The position numbers and the translations under genes are program-made. Under the pieces are notes generated by a model that had not been told where the DNA came from, made no database searches, and worked only from the letters and a program-made list of their open reading frames with translations. From NCBI GenBank assembly GCA_011389815.1, contig JAABTP010000001.1, positions 1,003-25,002 on the forward strand: a stretch of 24,000 bases of DNA. The letters are read 5' to 3'. Shown one piece after another: positions 17,073 through 21,077 of the stretch (positions within the stretch are counted from its first letter, which is position 1; each line of letters starts with the position of its first letter). The DNA comes from Desulfobulbaceae bacterium (lineage in GTDB: Bacteria > Desulfobacterota > Desulfobulbia > Desulfobulbales > Desulfobulbaceae).

Positions 17073-17792
17073 ATGAACGATCTGAAGTTGTCTGATAATG
17101 GGAGAAATGTGTTTAACTTCCCGGAAGCAATCCCTGGCCAGTTCATTATCACGGACAAGGAGCTTGACCAGAATGTGTATGAGCAGTTCATGACTGAGCT
17201 GGAATGGCTTGATCCTCAGCCGGATTACGCCATGTTGCTTCGTCAAGGCCAAGAGCTGTCCGGTAGGGCGTTGTCTCTTGCTCAAAAAAAGAATATTCTG
17301 GCACAACTCGCCCGCTGGGGTACGGTAGATGCCTATCAGCTTGTGCAGAAGTATTGCAAGTGCTGTGATTCATCCCTCGAACCCTGGAGTCAGGTAGCCC
17401 TGTATGAATGTCGGATGCGGATGGAGTCGGACCTGCTTGATGAGCCTGTGGGCCTGATCTCAACCGGGCTGGGTGGAGATGGTGAGCGGTTGCGCTATAT
17501 CTTTGTCCTTGCCTTGCAAGCGGAGTGTCCGGGAGAGGAAAAGCAGCAGGAGATGCGGGAGGCCTTGGATATGGTCTGCCGAAAGCATCGTTCGCGTGTG
17601 GAAGAGTTGCAATTCCATCCTTCTTATCTTTTCGTGCAGGTGCTTGTGCCGATAGATGTTGCGGCCGGAAAGGTGATTGAAGGCAGTATCGCCCGGTTGA
17701 ATCGGCAGGAGGAGCAGGTAGGACAGAACTACATGGCCACTAACGTTGCTGTGCCGACCGAGGAGGAGATACAGAAGTTTCTGGGTGGTTAG
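17073..17792 (+). CDS. Hypothetical protein (239 aa), no family recognised
   Basis: The ORF looks protein-like in composition. The ATG at 17073 is preceded by GGAG (17060-17063); the track's GTG at 17022 is an alternative start. It lies directly downstream of the bEBP gene on the same strand. Confidence 0.6.
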   Translation: MNDLKLSDNGRNVFNFPEAIPGQFIITDKELDQNVYEQFMTELEWLDPQPDYAMLLRQGQELSGRALSLAQKKNILAQLARWGTVDAYQLVQKYCKCCDSSLEPWSQVALYECRMRMESDLLDEPVGLISTGLGGDGERLRYIFVLALQAECPGEEKQQEMREALDMVCRKHRSRVEELQFHPSYLFVQVLVPIDVAAGKVIEGSIARLNRQEEQVGQNYMATNVAVPTEEEIQKFLGG

Positions 17793-18862
17793 AGCCGAAT
17801 ATCCAGCACATCCACCAGTCGTCCGCTGTAGCTGTTCCTGACTGTCTCCTTTAAGGCGGCATAGTCATTTACCCGGATGCTGAGGCTGCTGACAGCCGAG
17901 TCCGCAAAGCCCGGCAGGGTGCATCCGCCATTCTCACGCACCGGCACGACAGTGCCTGTCCTTCCCTTTTCCTCCATATCCAGCAAACTGAAGAGCAGCA
18001 CCTTCTTGCGGTGGTCAAGGATGACCTGAATGCGGAGCGTCTCGTTCGCTGTCACCGTGCCGCCAATGACCGAGACATAAGGGCTGGCCGCGTTGCCGGT
18101 GAGGATGCCGTGCTCTGGCGGATCAGGCTGATTCAGGCCGCTCAACGTAAGGGGGCTGCGCAGCATCTGTCGGCAGGCGCCGGTACGCAGAGTACCGTGC
18201 GCGCTGTAGCGGGTCGAGACTGAGACCGTGTACTCGTTATTCCACGGCTGGCTCTGGGCAGGGATGTCAGGTATGAGCATGATGCTGCTCTTCTCAATCA
18301 TGCCAAAGCGGCTCTGGACGGCACTGCCGCTCTCGGTGCCCTTGATGAGACACTGGCTGTCGGGCTGCTTGGGGTCAAAGTCCAGATTGCGGCCCCCGAG
18401 CCGGAGCATGCCATCAGGATTCAGGACATTGTCCAGGTCGAGCACCGCATCGCGGGCCGTGCTGATCACTGGTTTCTTTTCGCGCACAGGCAGGCGTTCT
18501 GTGCGGGCGGATTGACGGATAGCCCTGGTAAAGGGCGGTGAGATGCGCACATTGACATTCAGGCATTGATCAATCGGCGGCAGCGGGTCGTTCGGGTGGT
18601 TCAGCCTGCCGCTGAAAGAGACAAACCAGCTCCAGCTCCCCTCCTTGGTCACCTGCTCACCGTTGAGGAGTCGCTCCTGCACGGCCTTGTCCTCGGCCCG
18701 GAGGATGGTCAGGATGTCTGCCTTGCTGAAGTTGGGGTGCTGCAGGGCGATGTCGGCAGCGATATCCTCAATGCCTGCTGAGCTGCGAGGCACGGCAAGG
18801 ATGCGCCAGGACGGGGGAGTGGTCATTGCGTTTACTTCGGGTCGCCATTGGATTGTCTGCAT
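17789..18862 (-). CDS. HU-like DNA-binding domain (HU_2-type) + DUF4469 (Ig-like) protein with an extra C-terminal domain
   Basis: The ATG at 18862 is preceded by AGAGGAGG with a 6-nt spacer. The N-terminus (...SAGIEDIAADIALQHPNFSKADILTILRAEDKAVQERLLNGEQV...SFSGRL) fits the HU-fold fusion family. The middle part (...GMLRLGGRNLDFDP...SIMLIPDIP...NEYTVSVSTRYS) fits the DUF4469 pattern. Assigned from memory of family patterns only. Confidence 0.6.
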   Translation of the reverse strand: MQTIQWRPEVNAMTTPPSWRILAVPRSSAGIEDIAADIALQHPNFSKADILTILRAEDKAVQERLLNGEQVTKEGSWSWFVSFSGRLNHPNDPLPPIDQCLNVNVRISPPFTRAIRQSARTERLPVREKKPVISTARDAVLDLDNVLNPDGMLRLGGRNLDFDPKQPDSQCLIKGTESGSAVQSRFGMIEKSSIMLIPDIPAQSQPWNNEYTVSVSTRYSAHGTLRTGACRQMLRSPLTLSGLNQPDPPEHGILTGNAASPYVSVIGGTVTANETLRIQVILDHRKKVLLFSLLDMEEKGRTGTVVPVRENGGCTLPGFADSAVSSLSIRVNDYAALKETVRNSYSGRLVDVLDIRL

Positions 18863-18920
18863 GAGGGGCCTCCTCTTTGATGTATTTGGTTGAGAGAGTC
18901 GGACGAGTTTATAATGACGT

Positions 18921-18949
18921 ATCGTAAGGCGGGCGGAGGAGGGTGTCAA
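18921..18949 (-). promoter_or_regulatory. Candidate sigma-70 promoter of the HU-like/DUF4469 gene
   Basis: The minus strand reads TTGACA (18949-18944), a 17-nt spacer, then TACGAT (18926-18921). It lies between the tandem-repeat array and the SD/ATG. Confidence 0.35.
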
Positions 18950-18971
18950 CCAGTTTGCAAGGAAGGGTTCC

Positions 18972-19086
18972 ACTATGGTGGAAAGGATGGTTGCACTGTA
19001 GTGGAACTGGGATTTGGACTATAGTGGAAAGAGTAGTTGCACTATGGTGTAAGGAATGGTTGGACTATAGTGGGGATATGTTTCGT
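18972..19086. repeat. Five tandem 23-bp direct repeats (iteron-like), plus a degenerate sixth unit at 18949-18971
   Basis: Units start at 18972, 18995, 19018, 19041 and 19064, an exact 23-bp phase. They read ACTATGGTGGAAAGGATGGTTGC / ACTGTAGTGGAACTGGGATTTGG / ACTATAGTGGAAAGAGTAGTTGC / ACTATGGTGTAAGGAATGGTTGG / ACTATAGTGGGGATATGTTTCGT. The core (C)CACTATAGTGG is itself palindromic. Confidence 0.85.
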
Positions 19087-19112
19087 AAGGACGTTTCGCG
19101 AAATGCCCTTAC
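19085..19112 (-). terminator. Imperfect palindrome directly after the STAND gene stop (possible terminator)
   Basis: GTAAGGACGTTTCG/CGAAATGCCCTTAC has two mismatches in 14-bp arms. There is no U-tract. Confidence 0.35.
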
Positions 19113-19121
19113 CTTGCGCCG

Positions 19122-21077
19122 CTATGCTTCCTTCGCCCCTTGCCGTTTTGCCCGCACCTGTGCCAATCCCTCGCGCCATTCTTCCAATTTGGGATGACCG
19201 ATCTCCTCTTCAATCCGCACGGCCTGGCTGATGTATTCCTCTGCCTTGGCAAGGTCGCCCATGTCTTCGTAGGTGCGACCGAGGTTCCAGCAGCTTTGCG
19301 CCTCCCCGGCCCTGTCTCCCAGCTCGCGTCGGATTGCCAATCCTTGTTTTAAATACTCCAAGGCTGATGACCTATTGCCTTGAGTACGGTAAATTGCGGC
19401 TATGTTGGTTAAGGCTGCACTTTCACCGATTCTATCGCTGCTCTCCATGCTGATAGGCAGGCTTTGTTGTAAATAGGTCAATGCTGTTTCATAGTCGCCT
19501 ATCTTCATATAAACCATAGCCATATTATTTAATGTTGTGCCTTCTCCAACCCTGTCACCTGCCTCTCGCTGCATCATCAGACTTTGCGTGTAACATTGCA
19601 AAGCCTGTTCATAATTGCATTGTATGTCATAAATGAGACCGATATTATTCAGAGTAAGACTTTCGCCCTGTCTGTATCCCCATTCACGATGAATCAGCAA
19701 ACTCTGCTCGTAATATTCCAGTGCTCTTGCATACTCACCGAGCTTCCAGCAAGTTTCACCTAATTCATTGAGACACCAGCTTTCATCTCGCCTCTCTTCT
19801 TTCAACCTTGCCGCATTCAATCTCATGCTTACAATGGTCAGCTTTTCTGTCCAATATCCCTGTCGGTCTAAGTAAATGATAATTGCTCGTACCAAGGCTT
19901 GCACTTCATCCAACAGCCTACTGTTCAGGCAGCTTTCCGTAAGGCGCAGGCAGTGCGCCCTTTCTTTGTCCAGGCAGGCATAGCCCTCCAATCCAGCTTG
20001 GCTTTGTTCCTCGCAGAAATAAATATAATAGGCAGCCAGCCGCTCCAAGCTCTCCTTGCTCAAAGCCAACTCGGTGCGAGAGTAGGTATGAATCAGCGCA
20101 TGGCTTATCTGCCAGCGTTCCTCCTTGCGCTCCATCATGCCATAATTGACCAACTCGTTTAATGCCTTGCGGCCTCGGCGTTCATCGCACTCAAATATGG
20201 CACCAACCGGTTCAGAAGCAATCGGCGCAAAGGCCAAGCAACCTGCCGCGCCCAGCGCAAGTCGGGCATCATCGCTCACCTGAGCTACGCTGCGGCGCAG
20301 CAGCAAGGCTGCATTCTCTTCTTGATGAGAACCGCTACCCAGCTCCTTGAGTGGCTCCCTTTCTATCCAGTGCAGGTAGTCCGCCGCACTCTCGCCCGTG
20401 CTTCTGAGATACCGACCAGCGAGTTGCAAGGCTACTGGCCATCCGCCAAGAATGTTGCAGATACCCTGCACGCTTGCATCATCATCTACCTCCCCGCTAT
20501 ACTTGCGAAATGCCTCTGCTGCCTCTTGCTCATACAGCGGTGTAAGATCAAGCCGGAAACCCAGCGCATCTGATCTTTTCCTACTGGTGATCAATACTCC
20601 GCATGTGCCACCCAGTCTAAGCATGGTTGGTAAGTCGTCTGCTTCCTCCGTACCATCCAAGATAAGCAGCATCTTTCTACCCGCCAAGGCAAGCAGCACA
20701 GCAGTTTCCAAAGTCGGCTCAGGTTCAATATTCAAAGATTGGGCAATATGTTTTAAGGCATGTGCTATTTCTGGCTGATGGTAAAAACTATGGGAGATAA
20801 TGCCATCCGGGAACCTGCTTTCTTCCAATTTATGCACCGCCTGAGCTGCCAATGCACTTTTACCTATGCCGCCCGGTCCGCAGATGGTTATAATCTTGCC
20901 GGGACGCAATGACTCAAAGAGCAGGGCAAGCTCTTCTTCACGACCGACAAAACAGTCATTAGGTAGAGGAAGTTGACATGGGACTTGAGAAGGCTCAGGA
21001 ATGTAGCAAGCAATGGTTCCATCGCCTTGCGCAATATTGACGTCTTTCGTGCCGAAGGAAATGGACTTGTTTATCAT
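19122..21077 (-). CDS. STAND NTPase: NB-ARC (AP-ATPase) domain + C-terminal TPR array, with no recognisable effector domain
   Basis: 651 aa. It has FVGREEELALL, Walker A GPGGIGKSALA, Walker B MLLILDGTEE, VLITSR, and the GxP motif LGGWPVALQLAG. About five kinesin-light-chain-type TPRs are present (...LNNIGLIYDIQCNYEQALQCY..., ...LNNMAMVYMKIGDYETALTYL..., ...LTNIAAIYRTQGNRSSALEYL...). Only about 40 aa precede the ATPase. Confidence 0.9.
   Translation of the reverse strand: MINKSISFGTKDVNIAQGDGTIACYIPEPSQVPCQLPLPNDCFVGREEELALLFESLRPGKIITICGPGGIGKSALAAQAVHKLEESRFPDGIISHSFYHQPEIAHALKHIAQSLNIEPEPTLETAVLLALAGRKMLLILDGTEEADDLPTMLRLGGTCGVLITSRKRSDALGFRLDLTPLYEQEAAEAFRKYSGEVDDDASVQGICNILGGWPVALQLAGRYLRSTGESAADYLHWIEREPLKELGSGSHQEENAALLLRRSVAQVSDDARLALGAAGCLAFAPIASEPVGAIFECDERRGRKALNELVNYGMMERKEERWQISHALIHTYSRTELALSKESLERLAAYYIYFCEEQSQAGLEGYACLDKERAHCLRLTESCLNSRLLDEVQALVRAIIIYLDRQGYWTEKLTIVSMRLNAARLKEERRDESWCLNELGETCWKLGEYARALEYYEQSLLIHREWGYRQGESLTLNNIGLIYDIQCNYEQALQCYTQSLMMQREAGDRVGEGTTLNNMAMVYMKIGDYETALTYLQQSLPISMESSDRIGESAALTNIAAIYRTQGNRSSALEYLKQGLAIRRELGDRAGEAQSCWNLGRTYEDMGDLAKAEEYISQAVRIEEEIGHPKLEEWREGLAQVRAKRQGAKEA

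Follow-up and report, generated by a model that had tools for sequence, protein, structure and literature searches.

A promoter-phased array of palindromic 23-bp units upstream of an HU-like gene in cable bacteria: a candidate operator for the product of its own gene

The array and its surroundings

We analyzed a 24,000-nucleotide stretch of a Desulfobulbaceae genome (assembly GCA_011389815.1, contig JAABTP010000001.1, positions 1,003 to 25,002 of the forward strand; referred to as the window), in which a gene for an HU-like protein, here termed P0001, is preceded by five contiguous 23-bp units with palindromic cores. An initial annotation, made from the letters of the window, had noticed these units and proposed that they are iterons or a cooperative array for a dimeric DNA-binding protein, with autoregulation by the adjacent gene as an obvious hypothesis. 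Our analysis revealed that the array follows a rule common to a large family of paralogous genes, and we consider it probable that it is an operator array for the protein encoded downstream. The features of the locus are the following, in window coordinates, the minus strand being the strand of the gene.

17789..18862, minus strand: gene of P0001, a 357-amino-acid (aa) protein of the HU-HIG/DUF4469 type, with its ATG at 18862
18869..18877, minus strand: Shine-Dalgarno sequence AAGAGGAGG, 6 nt before the ATG, conserved in orthologs
18921..18926, minus strand: -10 hexamer TACGAT, 17 nt after the -35 hexamer
18944..18949, minus strand: -35 hexamer TTGACA, invariant in eight orthologs
18949..18971, minus strand: degenerate sixth unit, 4.9 bits with the position weight matrix (PWM) compared with 22-32 bits for the five units; repeat copy at 61% identity
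18972..19086, minus strand (orientation taken from the downstream minus-strand gene): array of five contiguous 23-bp units
18971..18980, unstranded: dyad core 1, reading CACCATAGTG along the gene strand; its axis falls between 18975 and 18976, which is -61.5 relative to the inferred transcription start
18994..19003, unstranded: dyad core 2, CACTACAGTG, axis at -84.5 from that start
19017..19026, unstranded: dyad core 3, CACTATAGTC, axis at -107.5
19040..19049, unstranded: dyad core 4, CACCATAGTG, axis at -130.5
19063..19072, unstranded: dyad core 5, CACTATAGTC, axis at -153.5
19085..19112, minus strand: hairpin with 14-bp arms between the STAND stop codon and the array, terminator-like, with no U-tract
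19122..21077, minus strand: gene of an NB-ARC/TPR STAND NTPase, the upstream neighbor on the same strand; such neighbors recur at family arrays

The units start at 18972, 18995, 19018, 19041, and 19064, with the cores ACTATGGTGG, ACTGTAGTGG, ACTATAGTGG, ACTATGGTGT, and ACTATAGTGG in this order, and a repeat search returned start-to-start spacings of 23, 23, 23, and 23. On the gene strand, the unit consensus is TTTCCACTA/TAGTGCAACCA, the slash marking the dyad axis. Tandem Repeats Finder (TRF) described the array with a period of 23 (4.9 copies, 69% matches) and also with a period of 46 (2.2 copies, 79% matches). The lag-23 self-identity of 18972-19086 was 0.63, which corresponds to a z of 9.4 with respect to 5000 dinucleotide shuffles for which the maximum over lags 5-49 was taken (mean 0.398, standard deviation 0.025, largest value 0.537). 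Over the 24 kb, the array was the top lag-23 site (0.70, compared with a window mean of 0.258 and a standard deviation of 0.052), and CACTATAGTGG with at most two mismatches was matched 14 times against 3.8 expected, 10 of these 14 matches being the array, on both strands. The 10-bp consensus core CACTA/TAGTG is a perfect palindrome, from which single units depart at 0-1 positions. The positions of the units and their cores, the dyad symmetry of the core, and the gene limits (ATG of the HU-like gene at 18862, end of the STAND open reading frame [ORF] at 19122) in the initial annotation were thus borne out, as was its sixth unit over the TTGACA-N17-TACGAT site, which is in phase with the array and overlaps the -35 hexamer. 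It had also been right in discarding a CRISPR array, given that the units are contiguous at 23-bp spacing and that there are no spacers.

Read along the gene strand, the order is the STAND stop codon, the 14-bp-arm hairpin, the five units, the weak sixth unit with TTGACA, a 17-nt spacer, TACGAT, a leader of ~52 nt, the Shine-Dalgarno sequence, and the ATG. The pair TTGACA-17-TACGAT (18949 to 18921, minus strand) was the sole promoter-like match in 18600-19400 and would place the transcription start near 18914, with a 5' untranslated region (UTR) of ~52 nt. A sigma-54 promoter of the -24/-12 type (TGGCAC-N5-TTGC) had no match with up to two mismatches on either strand of 18850-19130; an upstream activating sequence for a nearby bacterial enhancer-binding protein was therefore rejected, the conserved promoter being TTGACA-N17-TAnnnT. 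The Electronema orthologs L010 and L011 carry a hairpin of other sequence at the place of the 14-bp-arm hairpin. The downstream neighbor of the HU-like gene is convergent and has no Pfam match, and the HU-like gene stands alone.

P0001 is composed of an N-terminal beta-hairpin and HU fold, a disordered linker, and two immunoglobulin (Ig)-like beta domains. Its own Pfam scores are below the cut-offs (24.9 bits on PF14848, cut-off 30; 14.3 bits on DUF4469, PF14734, cut-off 22.6). Three paralogs of the same genome exceed the PF14848 cut-off (30.6-34 bits), and the distant paralog P0122, which a family hidden Markov model (HMM) connects to P0001 with an E of 1e-45, scores 32.2 bits on the HU-HIG family PF18291 (cut-off 26.2) and 35.1 bits on PF14734. 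In the AlphaFold2 model of P0001 (predicted local distance difference test [pLDDT] of 72), strands 4-11 and 18-25 precede helices 31-41 and 47-66, so that the model has the modified HU fold with one more beta-hairpin at the N terminus that is seen in 4FMR. A Foldseek search with this model gave chains of 4fmr, an HU-HIG/Ig protein of Bacteroides, as top PDB matches (E 3e-7 to 2e-6), followed by HU proteins; the classical HU proteins matched with template modeling (TM) scores of 0.69-0.72 over the target, and the C-terminal beta-sandwich domains matched Ig-type folds (Fabs, filamin). The family profile also retrieved 4fmr_A, at an E of 0.0027. Based on its paralogs and the modeled fold, P0001 is placed in the HU-HIG clade; the earlier label HU-like/DUF4469 thus stands through these two routes, whereas the scores of P0001 alone would not carry it.

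A family of paralogs with private arrays

The family was present in 20 of the 81 genomes searched within the bacterial family, and in two genera only, Electrothrix and Electronema, the cable bacteria. Judging from the names of homologs, the genome of the window belongs to Candidatus Electrothrix. The family was found in the genome of the window, in 9 of 11 further genomes of the same genus, and in 10 of 10 genomes of the second genus, at 10-25 or more copies per genome; the genome of the window has 17-18 copies, of which 16 are complete and the 17th is cut by a contig end. No member was detected in 61 genomes from 14 further genera of the same bacterial family or in 300 other genomes across the phylum, and tblastn searches of 72,556 plasmids and of 50,697 phages returned nothing. 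HMMER against 1.84 billion representative proteins returned 725 clusters at an E of at most 0.001 and 60 at an E of at most 1e-30. Some of these relatives have 640-840 aa, of which the profile covers no more than the first ~330, so that large C-terminal extensions exist. The expansion is lineage specific and has no conserved operon partner, the commonest neighboring ORF family being of the TPR type (23 of 98 loci, frames overlapping the family gene excluded). Two remote members, P0211 and P0213 (L137 and L138), lie outside the known cable-bacteria bins in contexts resembling mobile elements, one in a metagenome-assembled genome labeled Gammaproteobacteria, beside a phage integrase, and the other on a contig with HTH_3 and Phage_rep_O. 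In both, 23 is the best upstream lag, weakly so (0.57 and 0.63), and both carry upstream GAAATAC-N2-GTATTTC palindromes.

The HU-HIG clade was defined in Bacteroidetes-Chlorobi, with occasional transfer to spirochaetes, and is characterized by lineage-specific expansions and the absence of operon partners (Burroughs, Kaur, Zhang & Aravind 2017, PMC5499826). The family analyzed here resembles its Ig-fused subclade (PF18291/PF14848 plus PF14734; 4FMR) in having a hairpin and HU fold followed by Ig domain(s), in its expansion to 10-25 copies, and in the lack of an operon partner. It differs in that the expansion is confined to cable bacteria (Desulfobulbaceae), in the greater length of the protein (357 aa) with two C-terminal beta domains in the model, and in the private phased palindromic arrays at its genes, whereas the cited paper argues against sequence-specific binding. 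This paper was the only relevant one found in the literature; nothing was found on the array rule, on DUF4469, or on cable bacteria together with tandem repeats. The family is also extreme in composition and yet old enough to be common to two genera. The GC content at third codon positions (GC3) of all 16 paralogs is 0.61-0.77, compared with a genome median of 0.49, and 14 of the 16 are at the 95th-100th percentile (C77 at the 94th, C104 at the 89th). This composition may result from codon selection toward high expression or from GC-biased conversion between the paralogs.

Whole-genome TRF analysis resulted in 64 rows at period 23, compared with 9 at period 22 and 15 at period 24. All 16 complete paralogs in the genome of the window have a 23-bp-period array of their own upstream, which ends 100-230 nt before the start codon in 15 of them. 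Among 98 distinct members from ~20 genomes, the best upstream autocorrelation lag (8-39) was exactly 23 in 83, and the arrays contained 3-10 units (usually 3-7, most often 5). Of the unit consensuses, 40% had 7 or more of the 8 dyad pairs, as opposed to 2% of shuffled units; the symmetry reaches ~±9 bp, which implies an 18-bp site and a 5-bp linker. A promoter module TTGAYA-N17-TAnnnT was identified in 85 of the 98 members, its -10 element ending 54-60 nt before the ATG, and among the 78 family promoters with a score of 9/12 or more, 70 had TTGACA as the -35 element. Over the 85 promoter-bearing loci, the mean palindrome score peaked at -26, -49, -72, -95, and -118 from the start of the -35 element; these peaks correspond to dyads at -61.5-23n from the inferred start, at loci whose unit sequences are unrelated.

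The unit sequences themselves are private. The 16 arrays of the genome are mutually random-like (~10/23), except for the window array and that of C217 (16/23) and for C104 and C77 (15/23). A single common reader cannot explain such arrays, and the encoded paralog is the only locus-specific factor, which makes the product of the respective gene the most economical candidate for the reader. The ~100 sister genes with the same layout and a site of their own suggest a large undescribed family of predicted private-site readers.

Plasmid iterons bound by Rep proteins (pPS10 RepA, R6K pi, RK2 TrfA) are ~20-bp direct repeats, three to seven in phase, that are specific to the adjacent product and autoregulatory. 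The window array shares with them the phased direct repeats of ~20 bp beside one gene, but it is chromosomal, its units are internally palindromic, and there are at least 16 different arrays per genome. Replication-type iterons, one of the two options of the initial annotation, do not fit: the adjacent gene encodes an HU-Ig protein and not a Rep protein, and no relatives turned up in the plasmid or phage collections; no search was made for DnaA boxes or for an AT-rich unwinding element.

The register also bears on the idea that the array acts as RNA or single-stranded DNA, namely, that it forms the 3' end of the STAND operon transcript and that its mutually complementary units fold into terminating or stabilizing hairpins. 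The minus-strand RNA of 18950-19120 does fold at -38.2 kcal/mol (z = -4.5 with respect to shuffles), and the window array and several arrays of the same type elsewhere directly follow the stop codon of a same-strand gene. However, tandem palindromes, together with the separate hairpin at 19085-19112, necessarily lead to a low folding energy. Among the 15 paralogs of the genome with a callable upstream neighbor, this neighbor is divergent in 6 and a TPR/STAND gene in only two or three, and the dyads are phase-locked to the downstream promoter and not to the upstream stop codon. A known RNA family was rejected as well, the Rfam 15 scan of 18000-20000 having produced a single chance match far below threshold (mir-4703, 22 bits compared with a gathering cut-off of 88, E 0.21). 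We regard a function at the RNA level as very unlikely.

To the family rule we can add the conservation of the locus itself in a set of eight P0001 orthologs from both genera, with protein identities from 97% down to 78%. The region from the array to the ATG aligned without gaps in all eight, and the between-genus identities of its parts were as follows.

-35 hexamer: 1.00
-10 hexamer: 0.97
dyad cores: 0.90
inter-core spacers: 0.76
promoter spacer: 0.62
5' UTR: 0.59

This pattern shows purifying selection on the cores. Variants specific to single units are conserved in the orthologs, for example, the spacer of unit 3 (CAAATCCCAGTTC), which indicates that the five sites are kept individually and are not homogenized by slippage. 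The DNA upstream of the array cannot be aligned between most Electrothrix orthologs and the genome of the window, so that the array travels with the gene. These data are hard to reconcile with functionless minisatellites that arose by slippage and were inherited with the gene family. Period-46 and period-69 super-repeats do occur in the arrays and show growth by block duplication, and unit similarity falls to background once protein identity is below ~65%, both of which would fit such an origin. On the other hand, the cores are 90% conserved between genera against ~60% for flanking noncoding DNA, the unit-specific variants persist, and palindromy, period, and register are maintained in ~100 paralogs with unrelated sequences. 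The minisatellite explanation is already disfavored, and we give it hardly any weight.

The family-constant period, palindromy, and register, in combination with selected sites that are specific to each paralog, make an operator array for the own gene product the most economical reading. We therefore favor, with better than even confidence, the view that the array is a cooperative operator array for the encoded HU-HIG/DUF4469-type protein, resulting in autoregulation. From the earlier proposal of a cooperative dimer array, what has held is a selected, paralog-specific cis-element tied to the HU-like gene, with phase-locked palindromes and conserved cores; binding by the protein is a prediction that a published structural argument, treated below, speaks against.

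Arrays without a family gene and competing readings

About 36 further 23-bp arrays in the genome of the window have no family gene beside them. Of these, 15 match the private unit of one paralog at 16/23 or better (99th percentile of the null, 15), such as the arrays C154:22560 and C169:24216, which resemble that of C77, the C231 array, which resembles C154, and the C22 and C180:9905 arrays, which resemble C187. Such copies are in line with an operator array for the own gene product that also has trans targets, whereas the other ~20, orphans with no matching paralog in the 233-contig assembly, weigh against it. According to the initial annotation, finding the array as a generic dispersed satellite would speak against its hypothesis; the ~36 arrays go in that direction, but the 15 that copy the unit of a single paralog look like candidate trans targets and not like a generic satellite. 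For the window unit, exact and near-exact searches of the genome retrieved only the array itself, and a PWM search then gave a related array at C49:3361-3545. This array has eight units (17/23 by eye with respect to the window unit) and is located upstream of a gene for a DUF308 membrane protein, with a TTGACA in register at a distance of 72.5 nt to the closest dyad; a search of 13 other genomes of the genus did not recover the DUF308 gene. Another array, C146:15779-15900, matches the window unit at 16/23 and precedes the gene of a 140-aa membrane protein.

Among the 81 genomes, two CACTATAGTG-like cores at a distance of exactly 23 bp were detected in the two cable-bacteria genera only. In other Electrothrix genomes, window-type arrays (GTTSCACTATAGTGSAAC, 23-bp phase) are present at one to four extra loci, three of which are orthologous between species. 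The eight such orphan arrays that we fetched (L140-L147, from genomes G070, G065, G058, and G007) have no HU-like gene beside them, and the TTGACA-N17 module was not found at any of the eight. Most are situated directly 3' of genes for TPR_12, NB-ARC/NACHT-TPR STAND, or Peptidase_C14 (caspase) proteins, and one sits inside an AAA/VWA gene pair. A simple promoter-operator role hence does not cover these promoter-less orphans, most of which are at gene 3' ends. An alternative is that the arrays are architectural or chromosome-organizing sites, comparable to centromeres or pairing sites, at which the protein nucleates a filament or bridges arrays of the same type, with any promoter effect being secondary. 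Same-type arrays at distant loci, some of them conserved between species and promoter-less, are in line with this alternative, as is the period of 2.2 helical turns, which implies a spiral, wrapped complex; ParR of pSK41, for comparison, assembles into a superhelical complex on the 20-bp tandem repeats of its centromere. Nevertheless, the arrays of the family genes keep a strict register with a conserved promoter, which speaks for a role in transcription at these genes, and there is neither a linked partition NTPase nor a plasmid or phage homolog. An architectural role is accordingly rated as quite unlikely.

Partition centromeres deserve a comparison in their own right. In R1 parC/ParR, pSK41 ParR, tubC/TubR, and the heptads of the omega repressor, tandem sites near the promoter of the binder support a cooperative superhelical complex and autoregulation. 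The window array is similar in its contiguous tandem sites just upstream of a promoter, but no ParM, ParA, or TubZ motor is linked to it, the protein has an HU and Ig fold instead of a ribbon-helix-helix or winged helix, and many orthogonal paralogs reside on one chromosome. A parC/ParR-like centromere was rejected because the HU-like gene stands by itself next to a convergent downstream gene lacking a Pfam match and because no NTPase motor recurs among the neighbors.

The neighborhood of STAND, TPR, and caspase genes is not limited to the orphans. All three NB-ARC/TPR STAND paralogs of the genome (C105:20124-22079, identical to window positions 19122-21077; C211:39097-41106; and C178:8225-10387) are within 50-310 nt of a 23-bp array, and in two of the three the order is STAND gene, array, HU-like gene. 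A 541-aa TPR gene (C207:2132-3757) is likewise followed by an array and an HU-like gene, and a TPR_12-type gene lies directly upstream on the same strand at 23 of the 98 loci, in many paralog groups. One can imagine that the HU-Ig paralogs and their private arrays are addressable DNA landmarks wired into NLR-like conflict or cell-death machinery. Each paralog would mark its own gene and a few arrays beside STAND, TPR, or caspase genes and would act there as a guard, output, or silencer and not as an ordinary housekeeping regulator. If true, the "biological conflict" role predicted in the literature for HU-HIG proteins would become compatible with sequence-specific DNA binding, but we consider this proposal unlikely.

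The remaining points against the own-product operator concern the protein and the phase. The fixed phase could partly stem from descent without indels and not from a requirement of RNA polymerase. The linker in the AlphaFold2 model (residues 119-144) has a pLDDT below 50, so that the domain arrangement is not settled by the model. When protein columns were compared with half-site bases for covariation, 17 of the top 30 columns were N-terminal, which is a weak enrichment with entropy and phylogeny as confounders. The DNA cleft of 4FMR is filled by the Ig domain, which occludes the HU clasp, for which reason a role as sequence-specific transcription factor was argued to be unlikely; a role in biological conflict was proposed for HU-HIG proteins and no DNA target was reported (PMC5499826).

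The occlusion argument is also the first support for another explanation, according to which the arrays are selected protein sites but their reader is a different factor, for example, one linked to STAND/TPR proteins, whereas the HU-Ig protein would work by contacting proteins or RNA, in keeping with the proposal made for the Bacteroidetes clade. The recurrent proximity of the arrays to STAND, TPR, and caspase genes is consistent with it, and so are the subthreshold scores of P0001 alone on the Pfam DNA-binding-domain models. Yet the unit sequences differ between all paralogs, so that as many readers as arrays would be needed, and no other gene is consistently linked, even the TPR type reaching only the 23 of 98 loci. 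Moreover, the HU fold, including its proline-rich arm (DDPLPP), is well conserved in the family. We judge a different reader to be improbable, on a par with the landmark proposal.

Several repeat types in the genome were recorded beside these arrays. The orientation of the arrays with respect to flanking genes, based on rough ORF calls (17 divergent, 22 tandem, 6 convergent), is not clearly off background. A dispersed 23-bp type, GCATAGGGTTTGCCTATCAAAAG, occurs at six loci (C11:11761, C65:43046, C115:1226, C163:2020, C165:2613, and C233:30707) and matches no HU-like paralog, and a second unmatched 23-bp type, ATGCATTCGATCGGATCGAAAC, is present at four or five loci. The genome also has a larger excess at period 21 (130 TRF rows, ~111 merged arrays), with ~43 of these arrays overlapping long ORFs. 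Other period-21 arrays precede small-protein families of their own, namely, nine paralogs of 114-142 aa with no Pfam match and five paralogs of ~201 aa with a C-terminal fn3 domain.

A candidate operator for the own gene product

In the favored reading, the array comprises five operator sites and a weak sixth one, which would be bound by the protein encoded immediately downstream. The protein is predicted to dimerize through its HU fold and to read the imperfect palindrome TTCCACTA/TAGTGSAA of ~18 bp. Contacts between dimers, probably via the two C-terminal Ig-like domains, would fix the centre-to-centre distance of 23 bp throughout the family. With 10.5 bp per helical turn, successive dimers would be offset by ~69 degrees, and by this arithmetic five units would make approximately one superhelical turn. 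Each paralog would have diverged to a private site, and the array copies at other loci would be its trans targets.

The promoter-proximal dyad is centered at -61.5 of a near-consensus sigma-70-type promoter, and the weak site covers the -35 hexamer; from this geometry, occupancy of the array would feed back on transcription of the gene. As to the sign of this feedback, we lean only slightly toward cooperative negative autoregulation over activation, because the -35 hexamer is perfect, the spacing is 17 bp, and the weak in-phase site lies over the -35 hexamer. Activation is almost as plausible. A position of -61.5 is the classical class I activator position, occupied by CRP in the lac promoter, and the window array shares with that site a dyad-symmetric element centered at -61.5 from the inferred start. 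It differs from it in having five sites at 23-bp steps on different helix faces and a promoter that already possesses a consensus -35 element, and its distance is counted from a start that was deduced from the promoter.

HU-HIG/DUF4469 proteins form a large expanded family of no known function, for which the array is the first concrete candidate ligand. If the reading is correct, each cable bacterium would contain 10-25 orthogonal pairs of regulator and operator that share a single scaffold and a constant 23-bp geometry, which would constitute a natural toolkit of orthogonal DNA-binding modules. It would also offer an entry to gene regulation in organisms that so far resist growth in pure culture, and the association with STAND, TPR, and caspase genes is a hint of control over NLR-like systems in a multicellular bacterium.

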